Shown here: one piece after another, positions 41,989 to 64,000 of the stretch
How the letters are laid out: every line of letters begins with the position of its first letter
How positions within the stretch are numbered: position 1 is the stretch's first letter
Sequence record: PP777464.1
Direction: 5' to 3' (one strand)
DNA: 64,000 bases
From: Escherichia phage fEgEco12
Position numbers and translations under genes: made by a program
Notes under the pieces: generated by a model
Database searches by the model: none
The model's input: only the letters and a program-made list of their open reading frames with translations
Told to the model about the DNA's origin: nothing

Positions 41989-41989
41989 A

Positions 41990-42361
41990 ATGAGTTATCG
42001 TGAAATATTTTCGATCATTACTATTATTGTGTTTAGTTTAGGTTCTTTGATTTGGTTATTGTATTACTTCTGTGTAACCCCAGTATATAATATGCTAAAT
42101 TCAGTTCGCTCTGATGTTGGTATTGTTTCTTTTATTATCTTCATGACATATTATATGCTAAGTATCACAGGTTTGGTTTTGGTTGTTATCTTTGACCTTG
42201 GACCGAATCAAGATGGCATGGAGATGTGGGAATTGATAACGATGTTTGCATGTATGATACCTGCATTTGGTGTATGTGCTGGTGTATTTTATGGGTTGTG
42301 TAAAGGTGTGAACTACTTAAAAAATATCCACAATACTATTCGTAAAAAACGTATGTTATAA
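41990..42361 (+). CDS. small 3-TM membrane protein, family member B7
   Basis: C-terminal IRKKRML. Confidence 0.6.
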   Translation: MSYREIFSIITIIVFSLGSLIWLLYYFCVTPVYNMLNSVRSDVGIVSFIIFMTYYMLSITGLVLVVIFDLGPNQDGMEMWELITMFACMIPAFGVCAGVFYGLCKGVNYLKNIHNTIRKKRML

Positions 42362-43522: not shown

Positions 43523-43599
43523 GATAAAATCTCCTTGTGTTATACTTTATTTAATCATTTTATAATGTACAATTTTACAGCGATTTAATTGAGGTACTC

Positions 43600-44250: not shown

Positions 44251-44257
44251 AAGAAAA

Positions 44258-44276
44258 GCCAGTACATAGTACTGGC
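44258..44276. terminator. GCCAGTAC...TACTGGC hairpin
   Basis: GCCAGTAC-ATAG-TACTGGC. Confidence 0.6.
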
Positions 44277-44282
44277 ATTATA

Positions 44283-45419: not shown

Positions 45420-45433
45420 TCTTTTTCTCCTTG

Positions 45434-46582: not shown

Positions 46583-46659
46583 AATTCCCTCCTTTATTCA
46601 TTATACTATATTTAATCAAAAAGAAAAGCCAGCACTCTGTACTGGCATAGTATTAAGGT

Positions 46660-47790: not shown

Positions 47791-47835
47791 ATTTCCCTCC
47801 TTTATTCATTATACTATATTTAATACAAAAAGAAA

Positions 47836-47856
47836 TGCCAGTATCAAGTACTGGCA
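47836..47856 (-). terminator. inter-cassette hairpin TGCCAGTA-TCAAG-TACTGGCA plus T-run on minus strand
   Basis: same hairpin at 49835, 51099, 59557. Confidence 0.65.
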
Positions 47857-47869
47857 TAGTTTTATAGTA

Positions 47870-48979
47870 TCATTTCGGCATTGTAATTGCAGACCATGAG
47901 TTCGTGGTAATAGGACCTGGCACATACAAAAAAGAACCACAAGCATAAATTTGATTATTACCATCAAATACTATACTAAAATGTGCACATGTGTATAATG
48001 CTGATTTTTCTGGGTTGTAATTATCTAAAGTTAGTGTATTGGTGAATCTACTCAAACCACCACCAGAACCATTTCTACCAAATTCACCAGTACTATATAT
48101 CTTTCCTTCGGTTGTTGCGTACATATTAACATATGAAGTTGCACTTGATTTTGATATTTTATGTATCTTACTATCAATAGTAGTGGAGTTAAATGCAAAT
48201 GGATATACTTGTGTGTTCGTTGTAATACCGTTACCAAGTTGACCAACATACTGCCAACCTGCGTTGTATATATTGCTGGCTGAATAAGCAAGAGTACCAG
48301 TACTGTTACCACCAAACAGTTTAACACTGGTTAACCTGCTTACTAGTGTAGTATACTGTCCTGGACTTACGCCAAGTGAACCATACCCACTACTCCCACA
48401 ACCGAGAAGTTCACCATTTGATGTTAATATTAATGTGTTATTCTGTGTACCCAATATATCAAGGACTGTATTAGCTCCGGTATTAATAACTGAAACAAAA
48501 GTACTCTGAGCCGTGGAATACCCAGCACCGAGTGAATAGTTACCATTCATGCCTCTACCATAAACAATCGAACCACTAGCATCAACGTAGTGCATTGTAT
48601 CTACACCAATTGATATCATTTTAATATTAGATATATGTGGAAATGAAGAAGTAACATTCAAACCACCCAACTGAATCGTAGTATTTCCTGTGCCTAATTG
48701 TGTGGTAACTCCATGCATTATGAATTCTTCACCCTTGAGATAAAGAATATTGTACGCCCCAGCCCATGCATCAGTAACACCTTCTGAAATTAATATCCAA
48801 GTATTTCTTGTTGCTGTATTTTCAACGTTTAACTGAAAATAAGTATTAACCCCACAACCATAAAGTGAGCCATCGCCATAGAGGACGTACAAATTATCAA
48901 GACCGCACAGTACTTTCTTTATCTTTGGATCTTCAGGTGCAATATTCCCGTAATCAAACATTCTAACAAAAGGTAACAT
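47870..48979 (-). CDS. cassette protein 11: RCC1-like beta-propeller, N-terminus MLPFVRMFDYGN
   Basis: start at MLPF ATG 48979 after GGAGG; track upstream extension discounted; close paralog of cassette 2. Confidence 0.8.
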   Translation of the reverse strand: MLPFVRMFDYGNIAPEDPKIKKVLCGLDNLYVLYGDGSLYGCGVNTYFQLNVENTATRNTWILISEGVTDAWAGAYNILYLKGEEFIMHGVTTQLGTGNTTIQLGGLNVTSSFPHISNIKMISIGVDTMHYVDASGSIVYGRGMNGNYSLGAGYSTAQSTFVSVINTGANTVLDILGTQNNTLILTSNGELLGCGSSGYGSLGVSPGQYTTLVSRLTSVKLFGGNSTGTLAYSASNIYNAGWQYVGQLGNGITTNTQVYPFAFNSTTIDSKIHKISKSSATSYVNMYATTEGKIYSTGEFGRNGSGGGLSRFTNTLTLDNYNPEKSALYTCAHFSIVFDGNNQIYACGSFLYVPGPITTNSWSAITMPK

Positions 48980-49051
48980 ATTTCCTCCTTTATTCATTAT
49001 ACTATATTTAATACAAAAAGAAAAGCCAGTACTCAAGTACTGGCCTATATT

Positions 49052-49789
49052 TTAGACTGAATTGTTAGGATAATATCTCCCACGTCCCCATATTATTCGC
49101 ACAGCACCACCACCAGCAGCAGTATAAGAAGAATTATCCCATATACTACCACCACCACCATACCTCTTACCAGCACCACCACTACCAGCACCACCATTAT
49201 ATGAACCACCGTAGCTACCACCAATACCATTAGCACCTTGAACAATGATACCAGTACCACCACCCGTACCAATGAACGAGGTACTATAGAATGTACCACC
49301 CCCACCGCCGCCGCCAGCACCATTTTCACCAGTGATTGCATCTCCGTTACCACCTTTACCAGTGTAGCCACCAGCACCACCACCAATGACTGCACCACCA
49401 CTTACACCAGTGTTGCCACCATTACCACCACCATCATTAATAGCGTTAGCAGCTTTTCCACCTAGTCCACCAACCGTATATGCACCAGTGAAGCTAACAC
49501 ATAGTTTTTCAGTTCCACGGTATAAACCGTTTTCAACTGCTGTAGTAGTGTTGGAATGTGTAAGAGAAACACTTAAGTACTCACCACCAGAAACTGGAAT
49601 ATTATTACGCCACGATAAGCCGCCACCAGCACCACGTTGACCACCCGGTGAAATAACACATACTGATATTTCGGTAACGCCAGCAGGAACTGTAAATTGT
49701 GTTGTTCCTATTGCCGTGATTAATTGTTCACCATGTGGCTTATATTCAATTTTATTCCCGTACTTAACCATTCTTGCAAAAGGTAACAT
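49052..49789 (-). CDS. cassette protein 10: glycine-rich protein with the same N-terminal module (MLPFARMVKYGN)
   Basis: 245 aa; irregular GGxGG runs, no collagen GXY periodicity. Confidence 0.75.
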   Translation of the reverse strand: MLPFARMVKYGNKIEYKPHGEQLITAIGTTQFTVPAGVTEISVCVISPGGQRGAGGGLSWRNNIPVSGGEYLSVSLTHSNTTTAVENGLYRGTEKLCVSFTGAYTVGGLGGKAANAINDGGGNGGNTGVSGGAVIGGGAGGYTGKGGNGDAITGENGAGGGGGGGTFYSTSFIGTGGGTGIIVQGANGIGGSYGGSYNGGAGSGGAGKRYGGGGSIWDNSSYTAAGGGAVRIIWGRGRYYPNNSV

Positions 49790-49861
49790 AATTCCCTCCT
49801 TTATTCATTATACTATATTTAATACAAATAATAATGCCAGTATCAAGTACTGGCATTATTA

Positions 49862-51052
49862 TTACAATTGTCTAGGTGTATCCAGAACATATCTATTTGT
49901 TTTAGGACCACCATCATCATAAGTTCCGGTTGAATATATATTTTTCATATCAGCAGTCAGGAAAGTACGCAACGAACCGCGATATATTTTTATTTTATCA
50001 TACATAGAATATGTTATTTCTGACGGCAATGGACATGCAGTAAATTTACCAATGGTAGCATCATAACCAACACCCAATGTGCCAGCATAACTACTCGCAT
50101 TTAAACCAGTTGCATATACACCTGTACTCGTAACTAGTATACTAGATTGTGCTGGGTATCCAGTATGGATTGAATAATAAGTACCGGGTGGTAATGTAGC
50201 ACTATTATTTCCTAAAACTCCATTAACAGTGCTAGATGTAGTTTTATTTCCCCATGCTCCATTATTAGCTAATCCACCAACTAGAAACTGACGTGCTCCT
50301 GTATTTGGATTCTCCACTAAAGCACTGACAGCACCAAATGAACAAACAGTATATTGTAATGTTTTTGTATATGTGGTACTTGGCTTATACAAAGTATATT
50401 CATTAAATGGTGTCCATGTGGTACTAGTACTTATGCCAGATGTACTACCACCAATATATAAATTATTTTGTGTATCATAAAACATTACACAGCTATTTGT
50501 TGACTGTATTCGTGCAATATCAACATTAGGCGTGACAGCTTTTACAAATGAACCATCTGATATTTGATAAGTAGTTCCTGTACCATCTGCGAATTGTCTA
50601 GCACTATTCCACCCTGTACTCCATATTGTATTATTATCCATTAAGAAAGTAAACCACGTAGTACCTGCATACATCTGTTTAATTGAAGTACTTGAACTTT
50701 GTGTGTACAAATTTTCAATATATTGGTTATAACTTAAAAATGATGTAGTACTAGTTTCTAAACCAATATGACTACCATATCCACAATAAAAATAATTTAA
50801 GTCCTTATCTTGAACTAACAAAGTTCCTTGTGTCATCCAGCAATCTTTGACATTTTCTCTAATTAATGTCCACGACCTTACTGCATTATTATTTCCTCTA
50901 CCAAACTTCCCATAACTATTACTACCTCGTGCGTATAGTTGACCGTCGGTATAAAGTACAACAACCTCAGTATCAGTTGGTATTATTTTCTTAATTTGAA
51001 GAGGTTCAGGTGTGATATTCCCATAATCAAACATTCTAACAAAAGGTAACAT
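49862..51052 (-). CDS. cassette protein 9: RCC1-like beta-propeller, N-terminus MLPFVRMFDYGN
   Basis: 396 aa; RGSNSYGKFGRG. Confidence 0.8.
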   Translation of the reverse strand: MLPFVRMFDYGNITPEPLQIKKIIPTDTEVVVLYTDGQLYARGSNSYGKFGRGNNNAVRSWTLIRENVKDCWMTQGTLLVQDKDLNYFYCGYGSHIGLETSTTSFLSYNQYIENLYTQSSSTSIKQMYAGTTWFTFLMDNNTIWSTGWNSARQFADGTGTTYQISDGSFVKAVTPNVDIARIQSTNSCVMFYDTQNNLYIGGSTSGISTSTTWTPFNEYTLYKPSTTYTKTLQYTVCSFGAVSALVENPNTGARQFLVGGLANNGAWGNKTTSSTVNGVLGNNSATLPPGTYYSIHTGYPAQSSILVTSTGVYATGLNASSYAGTLGVGYDATIGKFTACPLPSEITYSMYDKIKIYRGSLRTFLTADMKNIYSTGTYDDGGPKTNRYVLDTPRQL

Positions 51053-51123
51053 AATTCCCTCCTTTATTCATTATACTATATTTAATCAAAAAAGAAAAGC
51101 CAGTATCAAGTACTGGCGTAATG

Positions 51124-52266
51124 TCAATAAGTATCCCAAGGTAATGGTGTCTTCCTAAATCCATACCTGGTTGTGCTCGCACCATCACCAGCAATGTATC
51201 TACCTATACCACATTGGTATAACTCTGTACTACTACATATAGCACCACCAATAGTACCACTACTCCACTGAATTATATTAGAATATGTTATTGGTAAATC
51301 ACTACATTTAGTATATATTCCAACAGTAGCACCACCACTAATACCACCAAACATACTTCGGTTAGCACCAGTGTAATATATACCATCTGGACTCATAAAT
51401 GCAGAGGTGTAAGTTGTACTGCAATCCACTGGACTTCTTATTGTATTAAGATCGCCTGGGTATGTCCTGACACCAAAGGTGTATACATTACCATCAGTTG
51501 TAATACCATTACCTAACTGCCCACTGTTTTGTCCACCACATGTAAGCAACAATGCAGAACCAGAAACAATTGCAGTAGCATTATACGAAGTACCCATTGC
51601 AATAGAAGCACCAGACAATAGTTTTGGAGTAACAATAGCTGTTGTATTACCCTGGCCTAATTCACCATTGATATTTCGTCCCCATGCGTATATAGAAGTC
51701 GTGTCCAATCGACATAGTACTGAACCATAACTAAACGTATATCGCATGTCAATTACCGCATTAGGCAAATTAACCTTAGTTGCAACACTAATAACACCAC
51801 CAGTAACACCACTGTTTGCGTTCATGTTACGACCATATGCATATAAAGAACCATCTGAAGTTTTAATATGCATCATACCATCTGTACAATATAATGCATC
51901 TATACTCTCCACCGCAACCGGACCCATACTGGTAGTTATATCGGTCCACCCAAGAGAGGTAGTACTAGAAATTAAGTTATTTCCGGCGTATAGTATTCTA
52001 TTATTATTAGTAACTACAACTGTATATCTGGTAGTAACACCAATTAATCGAACATCAGTATATATCTTAGACCACGCACCTAATGAATTGGTGTTTGCAT
52101 CCAAAAAGCCCAACTGCCCATCTGTATTGTATCCAATACCCCATACATCACCTGCACTGTCCAATAACACTTCATGTGAAAATCCAATCTTAAAATCTTT
52201 TATTGTAGGAACTACCGGAACTGGTGCAATATTCCCGTACTTAACCATTCTAGCAAAAGGTAACAT
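51124..52266 (-). CDS. cassette protein 8: RCC1-like beta-propeller, N-terminus MLPFARMVKYGN
   Basis: 380 aa; GYNTDGQLGF, GQNSGQLGNG, GRNINGELGQG. Confidence 0.8.
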   Translation of the reverse strand: MLPFARMVKYGNIAPVPVVPTIKDFKIGFSHEVLLDSAGDVWGIGYNTDGQLGFLDANTNSLGAWSKIYTDVRLIGVTTRYTVVVTNNNRILYAGNNLISSTTSLGWTDITTSMGPVAVESIDALYCTDGMMHIKTSDGSLYAYGRNMNANSGVTGGVISVATKVNLPNAVIDMRYTFSYGSVLCRLDTTSIYAWGRNINGELGQGNTTAIVTPKLLSGASIAMGTSYNATAIVSGSALLLTCGGQNSGQLGNGITTDGNVYTFGVRTYPGDLNTIRSPVDCSTTYTSAFMSPDGIYYTGANRSMFGGISGGATVGIYTKCSDLPITYSNIIQWSSGTIGGAICSSTELYQCGIGRYIAGDGASTTRYGFRKTPLPWDTY

Positions 52267-52340
52267 AATTCCCTCCTTTATTCATTATACTATATTTAAT
52301 ACAAATAAGAATGCCAGTACTCTGTACTGGCATTTTAATT

Positions 52341-53495
52341 TTAACTCGGTGTAACTATTTTTTTAAATAATCCTGTATTTCCGGCATTTTCTTCTTCATA
52401 CGGAATTGTACCCATACCAGCAGTTCTACTACCATTCCCTGAACCATATAATTCACCGTTTTTTAACATGAATGTTATCATATAACCATGTGTCATTTTA
52501 TCATATGGAACTGGTTCAGTTATATTAGTACATGCACGCCATGTTTTAATAACATTAGAGTTCGTTATTCCATCTCCAGAAGCGTTTCCACGCCCAGCGA
52601 AATACCATATACCACCTGCTCTAACGTGTGCTTCATAATTAGAACCACCTATGTAATCAATCGCAGTACTAGGAATACTAGAAGCTGGTATCTTTGTGAT
52701 TGTTCTAAGACTGTTAATAGTGCCATCAGTGCCATCACCCAACTGTCCATCTATTTGTGAACCGAATACATATAGCCCATCACTCTTTAATACGTAATTA
52801 GCACTATATGCATTTTCTGAATTTATCTGTAATACTCCAGTAGTAACAGTAGTCAATGTGGTAGTTGTACTAGTCGTACCAGTCGAACCAATACTAGATT
52901 TATTCCCACTGTACTTTAATGTCCCATCATTGTATAATACAAATGAAGCATTATTCGCGGTTACACCAATATCTTTAACATCAACTTCAGGTGTCAATGT
53001 CAGTACTGATACTCTTTGTCCAACAGCCCCAGTAAAAACTTCACCGTTGTTATTGTCACCCATCTTATATAATTTATTATCTATTGTTAATAATAATGTA
53101 ACGCCGTTTCCTATAACTATTTTACTATATGTGTCATTCACATTATTAAAAATACCAAGTATTTCTGTCCATACACGATAAGTAGTATTAACACCACGAT
53201 AGATTTGAGTACCAGTACTCCACCATGTGCCATCATTTTTACGTACTAATATTCCTTGTGTATCACCAGTAGTCCAAAATTCCTTTACATCAGTTAAACA
53301 TAAAACCCACTCTTCAACTATAGTAGGAGAACTACTACCAGTACCTAATTGATAGTAAAAATTATGCCCTCTGCCATATAATCTTCCGTCTTCTAATAAA
53401 ATAAACACATTATTCTGTAAAACTTTTACCATCTTTATACCAACTGGCACAGGTGCTTCATTCCCATAATCAAACATTCTAACAAAAGGTAACAT
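52341..53495 (-). CDS. cassette protein 7: RCC1-like beta-propeller, N-terminus MLPFVRMFDYGN
   Basis: 384 aa; GHNFYYQLGTG, GSQIDGQLGDG. Confidence 0.8.
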   Translation of the reverse strand: MLPFVRMFDYGNEAPVPVGIKMVKVLQNNVFILLEDGRLYGRGHNFYYQLGTGSSSPTIVEEWVLCLTDVKEFWTTGDTQGILVRKNDGTWWSTGTQIYRGVNTTYRVWTEILGIFNNVNDTYSKIVIGNGVTLLLTIDNKLYKMGDNNNGEVFTGAVGQRVSVLTLTPEVDVKDIGVTANNASFVLYNDGTLKYSGNKSSIGSTGTTSTTTTLTTVTTGVLQINSENAYSANYVLKSDGLYVFGSQIDGQLGDGTDGTINSLRTITKIPASSIPSTAIDYIGGSNYEAHVRAGGIWYFAGRGNASGDGITNSNVIKTWRACTNITEPVPYDKMTHGYMITFMLKNGELYGSGNGSRTAGMGTIPYEEENAGNTGLFKKIVTPS

Positions 53496-53565
53496 ATTTC
53501 CCTCCTTTATTCATTATACTATATTTAATCAAAAAGAATGCCAGTACTTGAGTACTGGCATTATG

Positions 53566-54675
53566 TTATTTTGGTAAATCAATTTTAGCAAAGACTGCAA
53601 CATCTGCACTTGCACCTGGAATGGCGTAATACGATCCAGTACTATATACATTCCCGTCTTTGGTTAATAATGATGTTAATCCGTCACTAAAAGCAACATC
53701 ACTAATCTCACTAACTTCTACAGGTAATTGTAAATTAGCAGCACTATAGATAGCACCCGTTTGAGAATTGTTTAATCCCAAACCACGGTTTCCCCCAATA
53801 CCTTTCTGATATGCACTAGTTAATATAATTTGCGTAGCCGTGCTTGTTGCCTCTGAATTTGTCATAAACAAAGGTGAATTATTAGGTAAAGTACTTACAG
53901 GAACTGCTTTGAATGTAGTTGAATCTGAACTAAGAAAGTTTGGAGTTGTACCACATGTGAAATATGATGTACCATTATAGTAATTGAGTGTATGTCCACC
54001 AATAGCTGCATCTATTACACCAGAACTACGCAGTCCCCAAATGTTAACTTGTGTTCTGTTCCCTGTGCCATGTAATCCACGGTCATTCCACCCTGAACTA
54101 TATAACTTATTATCTATGCTAATATACATACTATCATTAGGAGTAGACATAACTTTACGCACATTAGAAGCACATAGTGTTAATGTATATATTGATGAAG
54201 AACCAATCCCCAATACACCACGGTATCCATTAGCCCCAGCACCATAGAGTACTGAACTTGAACTGAGTACAAATATTACACCACCATTGCATACAATATT
54301 AGCAATTTGATTCACAGGAATTGTATTTGTAAACCACTCCGTTCTATCAACTAATGTAGTACTGTAAGAAGTTGTTGTTGATGATGTGAACCAATATGTT
54401 TCACCTGATGTCCATATCGTATTGTCATTTTTAATAATAACAAGTGTTCGTCCTCCAGTGAAAAAATTAGAAACATCTGCACTTACTAATGTCCAAGAAG
54501 ATACCGTGTTTTTATTACCATTTCCAGATTCACCACCTTGATTTCTGCCTATGTAATATAATTCATGTGAATCAGTCAATACGAATTGACCTTGTGTAGA
54601 AGCACCAACTTTTATTATATTTTTAGGACCAGGTGTAATATTCCCATAATCAAATAGTCTTACAAAAGGTAACAT
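53566..54675 (-). CDS. cassette protein 6: RCC1-like beta-propeller, N-terminus MLPFVRLFDYGN
   Basis: start at MLPF ATG 54675; GRNQGGESGNG. Confidence 0.8.
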   Translation of the reverse strand: MLPFVRLFDYGNITPGPKNIIKVGASTQGQFVLTDSHELYYIGRNQGGESGNGNKNTVSSWTLVSADVSNFFTGGRTLVIIKNDNTIWTSGETYWFTSSTTTSYSTTLVDRTEWFTNTIPVNQIANIVCNGGVIFVLSSSSVLYGAGANGYRGVLGIGSSSIYTLTLCASNVRKVMSTPNDSMYISIDNKLYSSGWNDRGLHGTGNRTQVNIWGLRSSGVIDAAIGGHTLNYYNGTSYFTCGTTPNFLSSDSTTFKAVPVSTLPNNSPLFMTNSEATSTATQIILTSAYQKGIGGNRGLGLNNSQTGAIYSAANLQLPVEVSEISDVAFSDGLTSLLTKDGNVYSTGSYYAIPGASADVAVFAKIDLPK

Positions 54676-54683
54676 AATTCCTC

Positions 54684-55877
54684 CTATTGTTGCCATAACT
54701 GCGTTGGCATTAATGTTAATGTTTTAATTAAGTAAGTACCATCCGGTAATTTACTACCTGAACCGTTAAAGCCCCCACATGCATATAATTTATAATCTTT
54801 AGTTATAATTATTGTTCTGGACCAGTCTTTGGATGCCATAAGAACATTGTCATATCCACCCTGTATCGCACTTAAAGAAAACGCCCCCCACGAAGTAATT
54901 ATTGTTGTATTTCCCGTCCCTTCTTGACCATATGTATTGATGCCTGCACTCCTGACATATGATGGGTATTGAGCCATAGGTGCACCAATTGTTGAGTTAC
55001 CCATATTACTAGGACACAGGAAACCATCACTAATATTCACTATAACCTGTGAATTCTGAACTGTAGTTAATTGGTTTGTAGTTGAAGTAGTACCATTCCC
55101 AGCTTGTCCAGAATTGTTTCTACCACTCCAGTACACCCTACCGGCAGTAAACCACCAGGTAACATCATAAGTAGTACTTATATAATCGACGTTGGTTCGT
55201 ATTAATTTATTAGTAAAAACGTATGAGCTAGTCCCACCACCACTTTCACCAAAGTTATCCTTACCACAAAACCATGCTTCTTTATTTGTTTTGAGATAGT
55301 GCGTACCCTGTAATGAACACGCCAATTGAGAAACTTCACCCATACCAGTAACAACTGTTAGTACTGGAATGGGATTTTGGTTACCTGTTCCACATTCGGC
55401 ATTTGCATTTTTACCACAAACAACGACTCTTCCATCGTGTAGTAATATTCTAGTACTTTCACCTATATGTACACTCTTGATTAAATTAGCGTGTATATTT
55501 ATTTTGTTAAATGCGGCAGTAACATCAGTCCATGTTCTAAAATAACCATTAACTGGAGTTGCATCTCCATAATCGGGGAATGCTACTGTATTCCCTGTGA
55601 AATATATTCTATTATCCAAGTCAATCATCAATGATCCATGAACGCCTAACCAAAAGGCTGCACAGTGCGTTGCCAGTACTGTAAAAGTTGAAACTGCCGA
55701 TTGATTCCCTAGACCTAATTGGCTCAAGTTATTACCACCATAACCGTATAGTGTATTCGTGGGCTTATGTAGATACATAGCATTAGTATAATGTTGCTGT
55801 AAAACATCAGTGAACTCAACTGGTTCAGGAATAGGCAGTTTATTCCCGTACTTAACCATTCTTGCAAAAGGTAACAT
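54684..55877 (-). CDS. cassette protein 5: RCC1-like beta-propeller, N-terminus MLPFARMVKYGN
   Basis: start at MLPF ATG 55877; YGGNNLSQLGLG. Confidence 0.8.
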   Translation of the reverse strand: MLPFARMVKYGNKLPIPEPVEFTDVLQQHYTNAMYLHKPTNTLYGYGGNNLSQLGLGNQSAVSTFTVLATHCAAFWLGVHGSLMIDLDNRIYFTGNTVAFPDYGDATPVNGYFRTWTDVTAAFNKINIHANLIKSVHIGESTRILLHDGRVVVCGKNANAECGTGNQNPIPVLTVVTGMGEVSQLACSLQGTHYLKTNKEAWFCGKDNFGESGGGTSSYVFTNKLIRTNVDYISTTYDVTWWFTAGRVYWSGRNNSGQAGNGTTSTTNQLTTVQNSQVIVNISDGFLCPSNMGNSTIGAPMAQYPSYVRSAGINTYGQEGTGNTTIITSWGAFSLSAIQGGYDNVLMASKDWSRTIIITKDYKLYACGGFNGSGSKLPDGTYLIKTLTLMPTQLWQQ

Positions 55878-55952
55878 AACTAAAATCTCCATATAATAAT
55901 TATAATGTATTTACAAAAAAATACCAGTACGTATTTCAGTACTGGTATAATG

Positions 55953-57134
55953 TTATGGTAAAATAATAGCTTGTAACGAACTCATACCCAATGTTGGAAC
56001 ACTCGCCTGTGGTGCTGGTGCATTCACTTTTGGTGATGAAACCGCATATGTCATTCCTGAACCCAAATCTGGATCAAAAACTACAGCACAATAATTCCCA
56101 CTATATATAAGTCCATTCTTGTATCCTTGTGCACTTTGAATGCATTTCGTGAACGTCCCAATATCTGTAGTGGCATTTATTAAGTTCCTCCCACGATAAC
56201 CGCAGGTGTATATGAAATTATCATCGCCTATGTACATACTAGAATCCCCAGCAGAACTACATAGATACGACATATAAGCACGCATGTTTTTAGGAGCAAC
56301 TGACAATGTACCAGCATAGAATTTATTATTCGAACCCGAAATATCACCATCACCCAAAGCACCAAAACTCCCCCAACCAGTACCATAATATCTCTTATCA
56401 CTCAAGAATATAATACAGTTGTTATTACACATCTTGACTTGATATATCAATGAAGGATCAACCCCAGGGAATGATTCAGTGTATGTTAGAACAGCCAGAT
56501 CAGTACTAGCATTACATTGATGATATGTATTAGTACCAGAGGACAATATTGTACCATCAACTAATAGAATCCTCGAAGTGCCAGTACCAGCAGTACAAGC
56601 AACTGCACTTCCTGCACTTCCGGTGTATATTTGTCTGAAAGTAAAGAAACCAACAGTCTTACTCCCTTGTCCACTCCAACCAGTATTATCAACACCACAC
56701 GCCCATACTGAACCATCTTCCATGATCATCATTACACCATAACGTTCTATTGAAATATAAACAATCTTTTTAGTATCAACTGCACTAAATCTAGAAGTTA
56801 TATCCGTCCAAACCTTTACACTTACCGCCGTCGCACTGGAAGTAGGATCTTCACCTGCTATCATTATCCTACCATTGTTAGTCAGATACATTGTCTGACT
56901 ATAACCAGTACTACAAAACTTAACACTATCAGTCTCTGGAACTTTTAACCACTCGTTGTAACGTGTTACGTTAGTGTTATTACCTAACTGATAATAGTTA
57001 TTCATCCCAGATACATATAACACACCATCCTTTATTAAACTATAAGTCGCACTATAGTCACTACAGGTATAACGTGTACCCACAGGTGGCTCAACGACGT
57101 TCCCATAATCAAACATTCTAACAAAAGGTAACAT
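55953..57134 (-). CDS. cassette protein 4: RCC1-like beta-propeller, N-terminus MLPFVRMFDYGN
   Basis: 393 aa; GMNNYYQLGNN. Confidence 0.8.
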   Translation of the reverse strand: MLPFVRMFDYGNVVEPPVGTRYTCSDYSATYSLIKDGVLYVSGMNNYYQLGNNTNVTRYNEWLKVPETDSVKFCSTGYSQTMYLTNNGRIMIAGEDPTSSATAVSVKVWTDITSRFSAVDTKKIVYISIERYGVMMIMEDGSVWACGVDNTGWSGQGSKTVGFFTFRQIYTGSAGSAVACTAGTGTSRILLVDGTILSSGTNTYHQCNASTDLAVLTYTESFPGVDPSLIYQVKMCNNNCIIFLSDKRYYGTGWGSFGALGDGDISGSNNKFYAGTLSVAPKNMRAYMSYLCSSAGDSSMYIGDDNFIYTCGYRGRNLINATTDIGTFTKCIQSAQGYKNGLIYSGNYCAVVFDPDLGSGMTYAVSSPKVNAPAPQASVPTLGMSSLQAIILP

Positions 57135-57207
57135 AATAAAATCTCCGTAATTAAATTATATAGTATTTACAAAAAATACCAGTACATATTTCAGTACTGA
57201 CCTATTA

Positions 57208-58329
57208 TTAAAAGGGCAACGGTAACTCAGTAAAAGTACTTACGTCCGGTAAACCATACATTGAATTAGCATCACCACAGTAATACCACTTCGTAGAATC
57301 ATGTACCACCGATAAACGCTGTGCACATAACACTTCCTGTATGTCATTAAACACCATCGGGACTAACTCATATGTATCCGCAAATGAAGATACACCACCA
57401 CTCGCATGAAAAGTATTCGTCCCAGCATAAAATAACTGATTAGTGTTCTTACCCACAGCAAATGTCATCAATATCCCATCATTCTCCCATAAAGAAGAAA
57501 ACTTATCAACACTACCAGAAAGCTCTGTGTAAGTACTCGTAATGGCACTCGCAGCCGCCGCATTACCCATCTGTTTATTCAAGTTCTGTCCAGCAATAAA
57601 ATATCTCGTTCGTGCACTAGAATCAGTATATAATAACCCAGTGTTCGTAGTCATCATACCAATGTCCTTAATCGTCATACCAGTCTGTGAATAACTTAGA
57701 TACGAAGTTAAATTAACATTATTACCCAACGAACCGTTATCACTCATGCCACAACGATGTAATATACCACTTGTATCAACGTAGATTGTACTAACTAAAC
57801 TCGTATACAACTCTTGTACATTATTCGCAATAAACACAGCAGTCGCCTTATTACTAACCCCACCAAATGATAGGTTATTATCAAATCCCTTAGCGTATAA
57901 TTGATTATTAGTAGTCAATAATCCAATCGTGAAATAAGACATTTTCATATCCCTTACTGTACTCAAATCTACTGCCCCAAATTGGTGCGTAACATCTGTC
58001 CATGTGAAAATCTGTGCACTACCAACACCACCCGTTTCAAACCATTTGTCACCACAGTACAATATGCGATTACCCTTAGTAAAGATAACTGTTACCAATC
58101 CACTACCACACGCAAACTTTACATCACTTCTAACCTTCGTCCAATCAAGTACATAGGTAGTGGTGTTATTACCTATACCTAACTTGCCATAACGGTTATA
58201 ACCACGCACCCACAAATCACCACTCTTAGTAATTAATAGTAATGCGTCTCCTGTACTTATTATTCGAAATCCCGAACTAGGATCAGGTACTTCATTTCCA
58301 TAATCAAACATTCTAACAAAAGGTAACAT
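57208..58329 (-). CDS. cassette protein 3: RCC1-like beta-propeller, N-terminus MLPFVRMFDYGN
   Basis: 373 aa; GYNRYGKLGIG. Confidence 0.8.
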   Translation of the reverse strand: MLPFVRMFDYGNEVPDPSSGFRIISTGDALLLITKSGDLWVRGYNRYGKLGIGNNTTTYVLDWTKVRSDVKFACGSGLVTVIFTKGNRILYCGDKWFETGGVGSAQIFTWTDVTHQFGAVDLSTVRDMKMSYFTIGLLTTNNQLYAKGFDNNLSFGGVSNKATAVFIANNVQELYTSLVSTIYVDTSGILHRCGMSDNGSLGNNVNLTSYLSYSQTGMTIKDIGMMTTNTGLLYTDSSARTRYFIAGQNLNKQMGNAAAASAITSTYTELSGSVDKFSSLWENDGILMTFAVGKNTNQLFYAGTNTFHASGGVSSFADTYELVPMVFNDIQEVLCAQRLSVVHDSTKWYYCGDANSMYGLPDVSTFTELPLPF

Positions 58330-58401
58330 ATTTCCCTCCTTTATTCATTATAATATATTTAATACAAAAAAGAAAAGCCAGTACAGAGTACTGGCATAGT
58401 A

Positions 58402-59511
58402 TTACTTGGGTAATGGAATTGTAGTCCATCTATTAGCGGCAACGCCCCCTGGTACATATGTAGGACTACCACTTACAGCAATAGTTTCATTACCATCATA
58501 CACAACACTGAAGTTTGTGCACGTATACAACGAGGCGGTATCTGGATTGTAATTTATAAGTGTTAATGTATTGGTGAACAAATTCAATGCAGTAGTTGAC
58601 CCGTTTTTACCAAACGAACCTGTCGTATATATCTTTCCTTCTGTTGTTGAGTACATGTTAACATATGACCCAGATGATGATTTGGCAATTTTATCTATCT
58701 TGCTATCTATCGTTTTAGAGTTAAATTGAAATGGATATACCTGTACGTTAGTATCTAAACCATTTCCTAGTTCCCCATTTAACTGCCACCCTGAGTGGTA
58801 CATTCCCGAATTTGTATATGCAAGCGTACTATACCCATTACCACCCATTATTTTAGTGCCAGATAATTTTAAACCAAACGATGTCCACTTACCAGTTTCA
58901 TTTCCTATAGAACCATAAGCACTTGTCCCACATGCTCGAAGCTCACCATTCGATGTTAGAAGCACTGTATTATTAACGTTACCAAATATATCAATAACCT
59001 GATTAGTTCCATTATTCAGTACTGAAGTGAAAGTACTCTGTGAGTAAGTACTACCTGAACCAACAGAACCATTTGTGTTCATACCTCTTCCATATACAGT
59101 TGTACCATCAGCACTAACATAGTGCATTGAATCAAAACCAATGGATATCATTTTAATATTAGAGATATCTGGGAATGAAGAAGTTACATCTACTCCACCT
59201 AATGGAATTGTAGTATTTCCTAAACCTAATGAGACATTAGTTCCGTGCATTATAAATTTATCTTCTTTCAAATATAAAATATTGTATCCACCAGCCCATG
59301 CATTACTAACACCATTGGTAATTAGTACCCAATTATTTTGTGTAGCAGTTCCATCAATATTTAACTGTTGATAGTTATTGATTCCACAACCATATAGCGA
59401 ACCATCACCATATAGTACATATAAATTATCATATCCTGCTATAACTTTCTTTATTTTTTTCGGTACTGGTGCAATATTCCCGTACTTAACCATTCTTACA
59501 AAAGGTAACAT
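58402..59511 (-). CDS. cassette protein 2: RCC1-like beta-propeller, hybrid N-terminus MLPFVRMVKYGN
   Basis: start at MLPF ATG 59511; close paralog of cassette 11. Confidence 0.8.
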   Translation of the reverse strand: MLPFVRMVKYGNIAPVPKKIKKVIAGYDNLYVLYGDGSLYGCGINNYQQLNIDGTATQNNWVLITNGVSNAWAGGYNILYLKEDKFIMHGTNVSLGLGNTTIPLGGVDVTSSFPDISNIKMISIGFDSMHYVSADGTTVYGRGMNTNGSVGSGSTYSQSTFTSVLNNGTNQVIDIFGNVNNTVLLTSNGELRACGTSAYGSIGNETGKWTSFGLKLSGTKIMGGNGYSTLAYTNSGMYHSGWQLNGELGNGLDTNVQVYPFQFNSKTIDSKIDKIAKSSSGSYVNMYSTTEGKIYTTGSFGKNGSTTALNLFTNTLTLINYNPDTASLYTCTNFSVVYDGNETIAVSGSPTYVPGGVAANRWTTIPLPK

Positions 59512-59556
59512 ATTTCCTCCTTTATTCATTATACTATATTTAATACAAAAAGAAAA

Positions 59557-59575
59557 GCCAGTATCAAGTACTGGC
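59557..59575 (-). terminator. inter-cassette hairpin GCCAGTA-TCAAG-TACTGGC
   Basis: read directly. Confidence 0.65.
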
Positions 59576-59583
59576 ATATTAAA

Positions 59584-60732
59584 TCACTGCCAAAATGACA
59601 TATCAACTTCTGTGAAATTAAGCACGCTCTGCGTAGAAAGACCACCCATTGCTACCATCGCAATTCCACAATAATATAACTTCCCTTTGTCATTGAGTAA
59701 CAATGTCCCAGATGGTGTTGTTACTAAATTGCACGAAGTATTAAAAGAAGTATATGAAGGAGTATAGTAGTACTGATTAATGGTATTACCTACACCTAAT
59801 TTTCCATACCCATTTTCTCCAGATGCGTAAAGTACTTCATCACCTTTAGCAATATGTGATGCCATGTTACTAACACACGTGTATACAGCTCTAACTCCTG
59901 TACTCAATAATGTAGGAGTCTTGTATTGGATATCAGTACTAGTAGATGTCCCACCTGTACCAAATTCATTACCGTATTGTGCACCGTATTGTTTACCACA
60001 AGCGTACAAATTATTATCCGATTTGATAAAAAATGTACTCTGATAACTTACATTAAAATCTATAACATCCGAAGAAATCATCGTCACCCCAGTAATAGAA
60101 GTTTGATTACCCGTGCCCAACTGGTAGTAATAGTTAAAACCACAACCCCATAAAGTATTATCTTCTCGCAAATAAATGTTACCAACTGCCTTTTTAACCG
60201 AAGTTATAGTATCTACTCTTTTGAATGTGTTAAAAGAATTAATGTTTGTGCCATCACCAAATGATGATATGTTCGATATATTGTTAGTTCCACAACAATA
60301 CAATGTACCATCGTTTGTTATCAAATTCACCTTCATATCATAAAAACTACTCATGTATTTTATATCAGAAACATTAATACCACTTGATGTTATCCACGTA
60401 GTACAGTCCGTCCACAAAGTTTTTCTATCAGTTACACCAGTGAATGCCTTCGTGTTACCAGTGATAAAAACTTTTCCAGTACCTTTCTCTTCATACAATT
60501 GACAATCACTACTGTTATCTTCCAATAGAACTCGTTTAACATTCTCCGCACAAAGAATAAATTTACTCGATGCTACACCTGTACCAGTACCCCAATTCGT
60601 CGCAGAAGATGCATACAACTTGTCAGTATAAGTATCATGAAGATACATAGAATCACTGGAATATATTTTATAACGACCAGAGTTGGTAGGAGCTTCATTC
60701 CCATAATCAAACATTCTAACAAAAGGTAACAT
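59584..60732 (-). CDS. cassette protein 1 (first in array): beta-propeller-like, N-terminus MLPFVRMFDYGN
   Basis: start at MLPF ATG 60732; same upstream TATAATGAATAAAGGAGG module. Confidence 0.75.
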   Translation of the reverse strand: MLPFVRMFDYGNEAPTNSGRYKIYSSDSMYLHDTYTDKLYASSATNWGTGTGVASSKFILCAENVKRVLLEDNSSDCQLYEEKGTGKVFITGNTKAFTGVTDRKTLWTDCTTWITSSGINVSDIKYMSSFYDMKVNLITNDGTLYCCGTNNISNISSFGDGTNINSFNTFKRVDTITSVKKAVGNIYLREDNTLWGCGFNYYYQLGTGNQTSITGVTMISSDVIDFNVSYQSTFFIKSDNNLYACGKQYGAQYGNEFGTGGTSTSTDIQYKTPTLLSTGVRAVYTCVSNMASHIAKGDEVLYASGENGYGKLGVGNTINQYYYTPSYTSFNTSCNLVTTPSGTLLLNDKGKLYYCGIAMVAMGGLSTQSVLNFTEVDMSFWQ

Positions 60733-60780
60733 ATTTCCTCCTTTATTCATTATATCATATTTACCCCAAAAAGAAAACCC

Positions 60781-60809
60781 TTGACAACCTTTCAGTACTG
60801 GTGTACTAT
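60781..60809 (+). promoter_or_regulatory. sigma-70-like promoter TTGACA-N17-TACTAT in divergent region
   Basis: TTGACA 60781-60786; drives the + strand small-ORF array. Confidence 0.45.
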
Positions 60810-60834
60810 AGAAGGAATATAAGGAGAACTGTAC

Positions 60835-61062
60835 ATGACAACTACACTTAAGTACTACATTAATACTCTAACTGAACTAGAGTACGCGAAGTTTCTCGCG
60901 GATAGTTCGTGGCTAATTGAGCTAAAAACACATAACAGTACTGGATGTAACCTTATGCTGAACAATGCACTTGATACCCTTGTAGTGAGTATTTTACACA
61001 GCAACATCTGCGGGAATAGCAATAAACAATTATCAAAAATCTTAGTACTGGTAGCTCTATGA
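60835..61062 (+). CDS. small protein, family with C-terminal aromatic-x-x-[VI]L-x-L[IV] motif
   Basis: 75 aa, ends KILVLVAL. Confidence 0.5.
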   Translation: MTTTLKYYINTLTELEYAKFLADSSWLIELKTHNSTGCNLMLNNALDTLVVSILHSNICGNSNKQLSKILVLVAL

Positions 61063-61271
61063 ACACTATGAACATTGAACAGTACTACATCGATGCACTA
61101 CCAACAAAAGGTCTACGAGAAAGCCTACTGTATACACAAAATAATTATATAAACTTCAAACATTGTCCTAAACTCTTGAACTCGTACAGGAATAATAAAA
61201 TAAGAAATGCTGTACAAGGGGTAGAAAGTATGCAATACTATTACATCCTAACCCTTTTAATCGAGCACTAA
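61059..61271 (+). CDS. small protein, same family
   Basis: MNTMNIEQYYIDALP ... YYYILTLLIEH. Confidence 0.5.
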   Translation: MNTMNIEQYYIDALPTKGLRESLLYTQNNYINFKHCPKLLNSYRNNKIRNAVQGVESMQYYYILTLLIEH

Positions 61272-61272
61272 T

Positions 61273-61458
61273 ATGTATAAAGAATTCTACTGTAGTAAGC
61301 TGCACAAACAATACAGAGATTCATTTCCCAATGAACCTATGGATATGAATAGTCCCTTTTATAAATTTGACTTCAGACTGGAGACACGTTATGCAATAGA
61401 ACATCAATTTCCTGAAACTAAGTACTTATCTATCATGAACCTCATCTTTAAGTTCTAA
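61273..61458 (+). CDS. small protein, MYKEFY subfamily
   Basis: 61 aa. Confidence 0.45.
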   Translation: MYKEFYCSKLHKQYRDSFPNEPMDMNSPFYKFDFRLETRYAIEHQFPETKYLSIMNLIFKF

Positions 61459-61469
61459 AAGAGTACTAT

Positions 61470-61682
61470 ATGAAAACTATGAACATACACCAGTACTACT
61501 TAGATATTCTCCCTAAAGATGTACAGTTCATCCTTAAACAAGAATACAGTACTTTAAAAAACCTTAAAAGAACCGCACCGAATGTATTAATCCTGCACCA
61601 AGAAAATGTAGTTGATAATATTCTACAAGGTGTACCAGGGACCGAGTACTTTAACATAATAAGGCTAATTACATTACCATGA
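61470..61682 (+). CDS. small protein, same family
   Basis: MKTMNIHQYYLDILP ... FNIIRLITLP. Confidence 0.5.
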   Translation: MKTMNIHQYYLDILPKDVQFILKQEYSTLKNLKRTAPNVLILHQENVVDNILQGVPGTEYFNIIRLITLP

Positions 61683-61864
61683 ATCATATATTATACTATT
61701 ACCTAAATCTATCCGACAGGGACAAGTACACCCACAACTCCAATGTATGGTACTACAAACGCGGTAGTATAAGAGACAAACAACATTACTTCTGTATTGC
61801 TATAAAAGAAGCACTAACAACTAAGTACACGTACAGAGCAGTACTGAAACTTATTGATATGTAA
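61679..61864 (+). CDS. small protein, same family
   Basis: ends YTYRAVLKLIDM. Confidence 0.5.
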   Translation: MNHILYYYLNLSDRDKYTHNSNVWYYKRGSIRDKQHYFCIAIKEALTTKYTYRAVLKLIDM

Positions 61865-61874
61865 AGAGAATACT

Positions 61875-62057
61875 ATGAGCATTGAATTGTACTTAAGTAA
61901 ATTACAGCCTGGCGATAGATTCATCTACAATAAGTTCGAATTCAACTACAAGAACGGGAGCAACAAATATCGTCGAGGATACCTATATACAAGCACAAGA
62001 GATGCACAAAACGAAAAGTACACATACAGAGAAGTACTTAAACTAATCTCTATTTGA
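61875..62057 (+). CDS. small protein, same family
   Basis: internal ATG; ends EKYTYREVLKLISI. Confidence 0.5.
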   Translation: MSIELYLSKLQPGDRFIYNKFEFNYKNGSNKYRRGYLYTSTRDAQNEKYTYREVLKLISI

Positions 62058-62065
62058 GGTAATAT

Positions 62066-62251
62066 ATGAATACATTTGAGTACTATACAAATAAACTATC
62101 TATGCCTGAAAGATCTCATCTCTATGTGTGGAGAAATGCGTATAAAAGCGGCAATAAACTTATACAAAGAAATTCCCTTACAGTGTGTACAAATTTAATT
62201 AAAGCAGAGTACCGCACATATATTGAAGTACTCAAACTGATAGCAATATAA
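62066..62251 (+). CDS. small protein, same family
   Basis: MNTFEYYTNKL ... YIEVLKLIAI. Confidence 0.5.
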   Translation: MNTFEYYTNKLSMPERSHLYVWRNAYKSGNKLIQRNSLTVCTNLIKAEYRTYIEVLKLIAI

Positions 62252-62259
62252 GGTACTCT

Positions 62260-62439
62260 ATGCAAGAATTCTATATCTATAACCTCCAGCACAAAGATAG
62301 ATACAACTATAATAAATTCCAAAGGTACTACACAGTCGGGAACAAAAGAGATAAAAAACGATACCTACTATCATGTACAGTAGAAGCACAAAACGAAAAG
62401 TACACGTACAGAGAAGTACTTAAACTAATCTTAATCTAA
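62260..62439 (+). CDS. small protein, same family
   Basis: 59-aa ORF hand-translated; ends EKYTYREVLKLILI. Confidence 0.45.
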   Translation: MQEFYIYNLQHKDRYNYNKFQRYYTVGNKRDKKRYLLSCTVEAQNEKYTYREVLKLILI

Positions 62440-62446
62440 GGTAGAC

Positions 62447-62635
62447 ATGAACACTTTTGAGTACTACTTCAATAAACTAAACCACATAGAACAAAGTATG
62501 CACAACTCATTTATTCAGCACCATCAATCATCTGCACATGGAATTAAAAATATATCGATTGAGATTATCACTACCCGTGTACTGTCATCTGAACGTTATA
62601 TGTATATTGATGTACTGAAACTCATCTCTATGTAA
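62447..62635 (+). CDS. small protein, same family
   Basis: MNTFEYYFNKL ... YIDVLKLISM. Confidence 0.5.
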   Translation: MNTFEYYFNKLNHIEQSMHNSFIQHHQSSAHGIKNISIEIITTRVLSSERYMYIDVLKLISM

Positions 62636-62643
62636 GGAATAAT

Positions 62644-62823
62644 ATGCAAGAATACTATATAGAACACATAAGCATTAAAGACCGTTTCATGTACGACACC
62701 TTCGTGAAGTACTACAACCTGGCAACTAATAGTACTAAAAATATTAATCTCAATAGCTGCATTCATCACGCACTAACAAAAGATAATCCCTTCAGGGAAA
62801 TCCTCGCTCTCGCATCTGTATAA
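62644..62823 (+). CDS. small protein, same family
   Basis: 59-aa ORF hand-translated; MQEYYIEHIS ... FREILALASV. Confidence 0.45.
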   Translation: MQEYYIEHISIKDRFMYDTFVKYYNLATNSTKNINLNSCIHHALTKDNPFREILALASV

Positions 62824-62833
62824 AGGAAACCAA

Positions 62834-63493
62834 ATGAAACTTAATGCACACAGCAAACAATACCTTAAGCACTTTAAATACCTCAACAGTATTCAAGCAG
62901 AATCTTTTACACCAGCATATACTTACGACCCGTGTGTACTAAAGAAACGAAATAAAAAGAAAAAATCCAGAAATGTTCTCGTATCTAAGAACCTCAAATC
63001 GTACTTGAAGAAAAATAATATAGCTCTTGCTTTTATTAATATCTATAATACTGATTTAAAAGTATTGAGTACTAATACCAGCACAAAAGCACTAAAGAAT
63101 GCATCTATCTATATACACATGGATAATATCCCGTGCACTATAATTCTATCTTTCGGGAATGTATACTTCTTCGGGAATTGTAATAGCACCCATGATATCA
63201 GTACTGCACAATTCCAAATCGGCGATATGTACTGCATGGGTTCAGAAAAAATACACGATAACATGCACTTCTTCCAAAAGCAACGTACTAACGAAACTGA
63301 TACAGTACTGCAATTCCTCAAAGAACTAGAACACAAAGAATTATCCGAGGAAGAAGAATTCATGTACAGTACTGTAATCGATAATCCAGGACTCTATAAA
63401 AACGCGTACAAACTAACAAAACATGTACAGGAACTTATCAGTACTGATAAGAAATTTCATCACCTCATTACGTATATTTCAAACTATGTATAA
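62834..63493 (+). CDS. hypothetical protein
   Basis: 219-aa ORF. Confidence 0.55.
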   Translation: MKLNAHSKQYLKHFKYLNSIQAESFTPAYTYDPCVLKKRNKKKKSRNVLVSKNLKSYLKKNNIALAFINIYNTDLKVLSTNTSTKALKNASIYIHMDNIPCTIILSFGNVYFFGNCNSTHDISTAQFQIGDMYCMGSEKIHDNMHFFQKQRTNETDTVLQFLKELEHKELSEEEEFMYSTVIDNPGLYKNAYKLTKHVQELISTDKKFHHLITYISNYV

Positions 63494-63659
63494 AGAATTC
63501 TACCTCTCGTACCTTAATTCCGATATAGTAACATCCAATACATTCAGTACTAAAATTATCTATAATGAAGTAATGAAAGAATGTATTAAAGGTGCTATTA
63601 ACCCTAAAGATACGTATGACTTGTACTATGCAGTACTAACCCTTGTTTTCACGAAATAA
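63486..63659 (+). CDS. small protein, MYKEFY subfamily
   Basis: internal ATG; ends YYAVLTLVFTK. Confidence 0.4.
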   Translation: MYKEFYLSYLNSDIVTSNTFSTKIIYNEVMKECIKGAINPKDTYDLYYAVLTLVFTK

Positions 63660-63667
63660 CACATAAT

Positions 63668-63859
63668 ATGAATAACCACAAAGAATACTACATAGAGAAA
63701 CTCCCAATGTATCTCCAACACCTTCTACCAACAGAACCATTGGGTATAGAAAAAAACTACGAAAAAGACTACTTCATTCAGTGCACTAAATCCTCGATAT
63801 ATATTGAAGACTATAATCGAGTACTGTATCACATCCTTTTACTAATATATAGGTACTAA
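63668..63859 (+). CDS. small protein, same family
   Basis: MNNHKEYYIEKLP ... HILLLIYRY. Confidence 0.45.
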   Translation: MNNHKEYYIEKLPMYLQHLLPTEPLGIEKNYEKDYFIQCTKSSIYIEDYNRVLYHILLLIYRY

Positions 63860-63860
63860 T

Positions 63861-64000
63861 ATGCACAAAGAATACTACACACAATTTCTCCCCAGTATAT
63901 TTGAACACTACGCCAGATATAAAGTCCCCCTGGATAACGATTTGGCAGTACTGGGATTCAATAATTGCATAGAACGCAGTATAGAAAATAGTAGTAGCTA
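63861..64000 (+). CDS. small protein, same family (3' partial, runs off window)
   Basis: MHKEYYTQFLP... Confidence 0.4.
   Translation, partial: MHKEYYTQFLPSIFEHYARYKVPLDNDLAVLGFNNCIERSIENSSS

Follow-up and report, generated by a model that had tools for sequence, protein, structure and literature searches.

Positions 60781–64000 of a 64,000-nt stretch of DNA from Escherichia phage fEgEco12 (sequence record PP777464.1; the whole stretch is hereafter the window) were analyzed and shown, with near certainty, to hold on the + strand a promoter and the 14 leading genes of a single, tightly packed operon that comprises about 21. Small tandem paralogues make up nearly all of this array, and the claims made here on its anatomy and on the kinship of its products are near certain. 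We propose, with a probability of roughly 0.35–0.4, that the array proteins are early intracellular binders, absent from the virion, that serve host takeover or act against host defences and were diversified by gene duplication; for the whole statement, in which anatomy, family and function are taken together, we put the odds at about even. Judged by sequence, the window derives from a jumbo coliphage of the Asteriusvirus type: over the 3.3 kb surrounding the array, identity to Escherichia phage WPEC5 is 99.2%, and 35 phage records match the array region, all of them Escherichia or Salmonella jumbo phages of 320–386 kb in the genus Asteriusvirus, including PBECO4, 121Q, phAPEC6, G17 and slurp01. 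The window is laid out as a + strand block (1–42.4 kb), a set of genes with RCC1 repeats on the − strand (42.4–60.75 kb) and the small open reading frames (ORFs) of the array, on the + strand from 60835.

Anatomy of the array and kinship of its products

A sequence-only reading of the window had described a run of ORFs of 57–75 amino acids interrupted by a single one of 219. The analysis bore this out: positions 60835–64000 contain 12 complete small ORFs in that size range, one ORF of 219 amino acids and, truncated at the window edge, a 13th small ORF. The end motifs quoted for these ORFs were found in the sequence, and the divergence of the array from the 5′ end of the RCC1 gene array was seen both in the window and in WPEC5. 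The array also runs on beyond the window edge, as that reading had supposed, with 7–8 further genes in WPEC5 and five other phages. Its count of at least 13 tandem paralogues stood in part, since 11 complete genes and a truncated one could be demonstrated as such, whereas the first gene, W01, had no significant relation to the rest.

A sigma-70-type promoter (60781..60809; TTGACA, 17-nt spacer, TACTAT) precedes the operon; it was the best site in the scan, scoring 10/12, and the sole strong promoter match for the array. A ribosome-binding site, AAGGAG, lies at 60821..60826, 8 nt ahead of the first ATG. Four phages with up to 13% difference in their coding DNA have identical −35 and −10 hexamers and are also identical over most of the 85-bp intergenic region; this region is near-invariant although the proportion of differing synonymous sites (pS) in the neighbouring genes is 0.2–0.5, and a more distant metagenomic relative retains it. 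Promoters of the form TTGAC[AT]-N16-18-TAnnnT number 32 in the window, 31 of them on the + strand and mostly right before genes of the 1–42 kb block, and none stands ahead of any RCC1 gene. Within the array, intergenic gaps range from −8 to +11 nt, four starts overlap the previous gene, most of the non-overlapping starts are preceded by short GG-containing motifs, and no terminator-like hairpin was seen. The T4-type late promoter TATAAATA, depleted overall, occurs twice in the window, in neither case close to the array. Rfam gave no match in window positions 60000–64000 or in the ORF-poor stretch that lies past the array in WPEC5.

All genes of the array lie on the + strand. W01 (60835..61062, 75 amino acids) opens the operon and is kept in all relatives, with a ratio of nonsynonymous to synonymous substitution rates (dN/dS) of 0.57. 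W02 (61059..61271) and W04 (61470..61682), both of 70 amino acids and assigned to subgroup C, find each other in phmmer searches with E values of 1e-10 and 2e-10 and match the family hidden Markov model (HMM) with E values of 9e-13 and 2e-11, respectively; W02 has a long insert ahead of the last helix. Between them lies W03 (61273..61458, 61 amino acids), a member of subfamily B recognized by phrog_11711 (E 2e-15) and by the HMM (4e-21). Subfamily A occupies the six genes W05 (61679..61864, 61 amino acids, isoelectric point (pI) 9.4), W06 (61875..62057, 60 amino acids from the ATG), W07 (62066..62251, 61 amino acids), W08 (62260..62439, 59 amino acids), W09 (62447..62635, 62 amino acids) and W10 (62644..62823, 59 amino acids). 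Matches to W08 were obtained with phmmer for W05 (9e-13), W06 (6e-17) and W10 (1e-10); W07 and W09 are both of the MNTFEYY type, W07 matching W09 with 1e-9, and W08 and W09 were assigned by phmmer and the family HMM. ORF calling also gives W06 an upstream TTG start at 61854, and the ATG at 61875 agrees with the WPEC5 annotation. The 219-amino-acid ORF, W11 (62834..63493), is overlapped at its end by 8 nt by the start of W12 (63486..63659, 57 amino acids; HMM 7e-12), which enters subfamily B through phrog_11711 (E 4.8e-7) and whose ATG at 63486 is that annotated in WPEC5. W13 (63668..63859, 63 amino acids), also of subfamily B (phrog_11711 E 6.9e-28), was the protein chosen for modelling. W14 (63861..64000) comprises the first 46 codons of an edge-cut family member of 60 amino acids (HMM 4e-13), the full-length counterpart of which lies at 15166–15348 of the WPEC5 locus L001.

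All-versus-all phmmer comparison yielded two tight groups, A (W05–W10) and B (W03, W13 and WPEC5 members past the window), with the W02/W04 pair connected to group B by the match of W02 to X21 (6e-6, reciprocal 1e-5). Profiles were widened with orthologues from six phages and from protein databases before being compared with each other, and hhalign, run with 51 non-redundant sequences of subfamily A and 81 of B/C, gave a probability of 96% and an E value of 4.8e-9 over 55 colinear columns. A test of whether the likeness goes beyond composition, set beforehand, failed to refute the family: against a background of 1066 six-frame ORFs of at least 35 amino acids, taken from the window and 27 kb of WPEC5, the family HMMs matched array members only (E 1e-11 to 1e-24), all background ORFs having E values of 0.1 or more; the similarity is therefore one of homology and not of composition. 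The B/C HMM placed three A members ahead of every background ORF, W07 being the best (E 1.5e-4). Subfamilies A (W05–W10), B (W03, W12–W14) and C (W02, W04) are thus, on sequence comparison, almost certainly a single homologous family. A database representative, P0052, in which a B-type N-terminus is joined to an A-type C-terminus, fits such unity.

Membership of W01 was tried in three ways, none of which demonstrated it. Its ends resemble the family motifs (LKYYINTL...ILVLVAL), the HMM E value was about 1–2, and hhalign with six W01 orthologues was colinear from end to end with P 0.005–0.03 and a probability of at most 6%; the match of a W01 orthologue, P0056, in an exhaustive search was circular, as W01 sat in the query alignment. 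W11 likewise had no significant match to any family HMM (E 0.2–4.8) and is unrelated to the small-protein family. The idea that the EYY and xVL protein motifs are a mere echo of the DNA word AGTACT (GAG TAC TAC; GAA GTA CTN) was rejected as the main cause, because only about half of the members carry AGTACT at the corresponding sites, while Tyr8 never varies and every member shows the C-terminal pattern.

Paralogues inside one genome share 11–60% identity (median 21%). Across 19 paralogues of one genome, Tyr8 was found in all 19, an aromatic or hydrophobic residue always occupied position 7, Leu12 was kept in 16, and the C-terminal pattern Y-x-x-[IV]-L-x-L-I was strongly kept. The conserved set, in W13 numbering, comprises Glu6, aromatic 7, Tyr8, Leu12, Phe36, Cys39, Thr40, Ala/Ile43-44, Tyr53, Ile56, Leu57, Leu59 and Ile60, nearly all other positions having high entropy. 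Structure prediction in search of a common small fold, which the sequence-only reading had suggested, was run on W13 with a 44-sequence alignment, and AlphaFold2 returned a confident four-helix model (predicted local distance difference test score (pLDDT) 87; predicted template modelling score 0.73) with helices at residues 3–10, 14–17, 29–45 and 49–60. Conserved residues lie nearly all in or beside the helices of the model and are mostly hydrophobic, as a core would show. The family protein, of about 60 residues, is predicted from this model to fold into a bundle of four helices in which an aromatic and aliphatic core is conserved and positions elsewhere vary greatly; the model had no informative structural neighbour. 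Array proteins contain 11.1% Tyr versus 5.6% elsewhere in the window, and 1.9% Gly versus 4.7%.

Orthologue comparison with three phages gave pooled dN/dS values of 0.45, 0.46 and 0.41 for the array and of 0.45–0.47 for W11, and the proportion of differing nonsynonymous sites (pN) was lower than pS in nearly all orthologue pairs. This shows the array genes to be real coding sequence under moderate purifying selection. The DNA sequences of W06 and W08 share 71% identity across 178 nt, and a 382-bp spacing marks W06–W07 and W08–W09 as a duplicated two-gene unit; the alternation within these pairs hints at heterodimers. The family has expanded by tandem duplication, this two-gene unit included, with turnover between phages.

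Relatives, copy number and the terminal repeat

In WPEC5 the array has seven more complete genes beyond the one cut by the window edge. Leaving the W01-type gene aside, family members per array number 19 in WPEC5, 21 in vB_Ec-M-J, 16 in G17, 19 in slurp01, 20 in JP4 and 18 in the distant metagenomic phage, and several members of the window have no orthologue at 60% identity or more in G17 or slurp01. Gene order is constant: RCC1 genes, divergent promoter region, W01-type gene, a few B/C members, the A block, W11 and the B block. Seven genomes, among which W11 identity falls to about 65%, have intact, tiled reading frames throughout the array. W11 itself separates the A block from the B block in all relatives, and its homologues are confined to this phage clade, one of 65% identity being found in the more distant metagenomic phage. 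It has no Pfam, NCBIfam or PDB match and corresponds to phrog_29152 (E 3e-113), annotated 'unknown function'. AlphaFold with 21 homologues gave an unusable model (pLDDT 37.5), and W11 therefore provided no functional clue.

The position of the array in the genome was likewise constant. In vB_Ec-M-J (OQ718158), the annotated direct terminal repeat is 21,525 bp long and its first bases recur at 357,049, which is 274 nt past the last gene of the array; across six genomes, the sequence that starts the terminal repeat lies 263–395 nt past the array end. Within the unique part of the genome the array therefore comes last among the transcription units, and it reads toward the repeat. The terminal repeat of vB_Ec-M-J and an experimentally confirmed repeat of 20,993 bp in fEgEco12 are on record (PMC13070987).

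Some features around this boundary were seen in passing. An ORF-poor stretch of about 2 kb past the array spans the inner boundary of the repeat, at 16741–18700 of L001 in WPEC5, about 1.7–3.7 kb beyond the window end, and is also present in loci L003–L008. Strong sigma-70-type promoters in both directions lie at about 17.4 and 18.4 kb of L001. The terminal repeat, at the physical genome end, opens with the hairpin AGTAGGCAGAGGAAGTCTGCC, followed by tandem AAAGTAATC-like repeats.

Ten array proteins compared with Pfam, NCBIfam and PADLOC had no meaningful match, and neither W11 nor the family profile had a match when searched against PDB sequences. W03, W12 and W13 match phrog_11711, itself of 'unknown function', over positions 1–62 of 62; among subfamily A proteins scanned against PHROG, W05, W07 and W10 had no match and W08 a weak one (phrog_34342, E 0.076), and subgroup C, scanned as W02, had no PHROG, Pfam or NCBIfam model. 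A word-index search returned 50 cluster representatives and an exhaustive HMM search of 1.84 billion sequences returned 15 at E values of 1e-3 or below, all database matches belonging to this phage clade or to short metagenome contigs with the same genes. In a search of the literature, no description of the family, its unity, the array or the AGTACT excess, and no Asteriusvirus transcriptome, was found. The proteins of phrog_11711 and of the 'hypothetical protein' entries 121Q_249-265, phAPEC6 gp542c/gp545c and G17_00054-00069 are the same as those of the array, but phrog_11711 covers subfamily B alone, with A and C outside it. What was already known is that database entries listed the genes as hypothetical proteins and that PHROGs had clustered half of the family; the unity of A, B and C at about 20 tandem copies, the predicted fold, the operon structure, the fixed site by the terminal repeat and the copy-number turnover are new. 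Annotation of the array is incomplete in several records, with 10 of 21 members annotated in vB_Ec-M-J (L003), 2 of 18 called in the metagenomic locus L008 and 8 of 18 in L009, and members also missed in slurp01 (L005) and Turkey3 (L007); gene counts of these phages are underestimates because of such omissions.

Possible roles of the array proteins

In the reading that we favour, the host RNA polymerase would transcribe the operon early from its single conserved promoter, as the promoter sequence and comparison with other phages suggest. Translation would be coupled along the mRNA and the products would remain in the cell and not enter the virion. Each paralogue would act as a stoichiometric small binder of a different host macromolecule, or of variants of one; binding would serve host takeover or the neutralizing of defences, and the various specificities would arise as genes were duplicated and their surface residues diverged. 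This early-binder proposal is favoured because of the operon anatomy, parallels in the related Rak2-like phages PA5oct and CBB, and the virion proteome of phAPEC6. PA5oct is dependent on RNA polymerase from its host, and most uncharacterised genes of its long terminal repeat show high transcription early on (PMC7318152). Short hypothetical genes of CBB form a block marked by RpoD-like promoters, which possibly extends into the downstream terminal repeat and which the authors read as early host-takeover genes (PMC5259590). Two RCC1 homologues of phAPEC6, gp549 and gp551, are virion proteins, and the virion proteome that lists them includes no small protein from gp53x–54x (PMC7247149).

Tandem families of small accessory genes by the ends of phage genomes are a known kind of thing. 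The Bacillus phage SPO1 carries a host-takeover module of 24 small genes, gp37–gp60, in its terminal redundancy. Like the SPO1, CBB and PA5oct blocks, which have been proposed or shown to be early, the array brings together small genes at or beside a long terminal repeat and a host-sigma-type promoter, here directly upstream and recognized as a consensus match only. Unlike them, it is made up nearly wholly of paralogues without sequence similarity outside the clade, has a single promoter, and lies 260–400 bp outside the repeat instead of within it; its early timing would follow by analogy. Small phage inhibitors of host proteins, such as T7 Gp2, T4 AsiA, anti-CRISPR and other anti-defence proteins, are normally single-copy. 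The array proteins resemble these in size (50–90 amino acids), in their compact folds, predicted here, in having no enzymatic motifs, and in a putative non-virion location and a likely early promoter; they differ in forming a family of 20 members, and no sequence or fold match to such inhibitors was found in the library searches made.

Several points weigh against an early role as host-directed binders. The timing rests on a consensus promoter and analogy, and small proteins easily escape virion mass spectrometry. There is no overall arms-race signature, because the dN/dS of the array, about 0.45, equals that of neighbouring W11. Codon usage is not host-like (AGA/AGG 63–72% of Arg, ATA 32–58% of Ile, CTA/CTC for Leu) and is nearer to that of the virion-associated, probably late, RCC1 genes than to that of other sigma-70-driven and terminal-repeat genes, which use CGT/CGC for Arg and little ATA. 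Moreover, the third-position skew is reversed relative to every other gene class of the window: over 61059–63859 the array and W11 have GC skews (GC3) of −0.32 and −0.34 and AT skews (AT3) of +0.12 and +0.01, versus +0.06 and −0.18 for other + strand genes and +0.14 and −0.21 for RCC1 genes on their own strand. A block of negative GC skew on the + strand was observed from 42.4 kb to exactly the array end (about 16.5 kb in L001), and the array therefore follows the skew of its neighbourhood and not its own transcription direction. A replication-linked bias switching near the terminal-repeat boundary could account for this.

The shared 85-bp divergent control region, present in every genome examined including the distant metagenomic relative, raises another explanation, namely that the small proteins serve the RCC1 virion proteins encoded next door as chaperones, adaptors or assembly factors, the two arrays having co-evolved as partners. 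Both arrays are multi-copy and variable between phages, and the rare codons of the small genes (AGA, ATA) resemble those of RCC1 genes. Promoter types nevertheless differ, the RCC1 genes having cassettes of their own and the small genes one common sigma-70-type promoter; copies are not one-to-one (11 reported RCC1-like genes in phAPEC6 and about 15 in the window versus 16–21 small genes); and the array is divergent, unlike the genes of fibre chaperones, which are usually downstream and co-oriented. No Pfam or NCBIfam match to any chaperone family was obtained, and we consider such a partnership unlikely. Slightly less probable again is a DNA-binding or nucleoid-associated function near the genome end, in terminus recognition, replication or packaging, or on AGTACT. 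In all genomes the array stands right by the terminal-repeat boundary, the density of AGTACT is highest in this region and its surroundings, and four members of subfamily A are basic (pI 9.4–9.6, charge +4.5 to +5.6); however, the other members are neutral or acidic (pI 5.4–8.8), no helix-turn-helix or other DNA-binding fold was matched, and twenty diverged copies would not be expected for a single sequence-specific function.

That the ORFs are evolutionary debris, functionless products of neutral duplication, or alike in composition only, seems highly improbable. No function or known domain has been assigned to them, and the proteins are very rich in Tyr, Asn and Ile and poor in Gly, as this explanation would have it. 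Against it stand the excess of pS over pN, with pooled dN/dS of 0.41–0.46, the intact and tiled frames in seven genomes, the confident AlphaFold model, and an HMM that sets members more than 10 orders of magnitude apart from the 1066 background ORFs, whose composition is the same.

The early-binder proposal can be carried further by a more distant comparison. Large eukaryotic DNA viruses carry terminal multigene families (MGF), such as MGF110, MGF360 and MGF505 of African swine fever virus and the terminal host-range families of poxviruses. The array shares with these the tandem paralogues near the end of a very large double-stranded DNA genome and an isolate-variable copy number, here 16–21 across six genomes. 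Its proteins are unrelated and much smaller and its host is bacterial, which makes the likeness one of analogy only. On that analogy, the array might be the phage counterpart of these families, a birth-and-death library of some 20 four-helix binders made from the onset of infection, each neutralizing a different host defence or takeover target, the repertoire helping to set which E. coli strains can be infected; we regard this extension as doubtful.

Surroundings of the array and implications

The + strand block upstream contains six tRNA genes (2892–7140) and, between 1 and 42361, about 30 near-consensus sigma-70 promoters on the + strand, several with the common downstream word TTTCATCAAC. 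Runs of like-sized ORFs occur in the same interval, for example eight ORFs of 104–123 amino acids at 39922–42361, and these are probably the other paralogue arrays to which the sequence-only reading alluded. On the − strand, 42398–60750 hold about 15 paralogous RCC1-repeat genes of 373–402 amino acids. Most have a cassette of their own, in which a terminator hairpin (CCAGTACT...AGTACTGG) is combined with an A/T-rich promoter-like box and AAAGGAGG; in the order in which it is met, the hairpin gCCAGTACT..AGTACTGGc with its T-run is followed by ATTAAATATAGTATAATGAATAAAGGAGGGAAnn and the ATG. The RCC1 genes closest to the array vary strongly between phages, the gene of the window and that of G17 in the corresponding place having 25% amino acid identity.

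Codon choice in the array and W11 favours TAC, CAC and TTC (62–68%) and GTA (79% of Val). The palindrome AGTACT is the commonest hexamer of the window, with 202 copies versus 22.6 ± 4.4 in dinucleotide shuffles, an excess of about nine-fold, and is often lengthened to CAGTACTG (47 copies). GTAC occurs 583 times versus about 208 expected from base composition, and GGTACC and CGTACG are absent from the window. When compared with synonymous-codon shuffles, AGTACT numbered 21 versus 6.0 in the array, 57 versus 15.4 in other + strand genes and 36 versus 13.3 in RCC1 genes. Because this excess outlasts the shuffles in every gene class and is also present in non-coding DNA, AGTACT is selected at the DNA level. 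Its density is 3.2 per kb in the window, where it is highest at 60794–64000 (about 8 per kb in the array), 6.5 per kb in the WPEC5 terminal repeat and about 5 per kb in the distant metagenomic relative, the excess having also been noted in loci L001–L009. AGTACT may be bound or modified by a phage protein, or may serve to build hairpin terminators.

In these 350-kb phages about 80% of genes lack a known function, and a family of 20 members over some 4.5 kb by the genome end is among the largest coherent pieces of that fraction. For annotators, a single profile now unites subfamilies that current libraries split or miss, and gene counts can be corrected in genomes of which several, as deposited, annotate just half of the members. 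If the proteins are indeed host-directed binders, the array would already provide a panel of small inhibitors directed at E. coli proteins or defences, and its paralogues could partly explain differences in host range among the Asteriusvirus isolates proposed for therapy.

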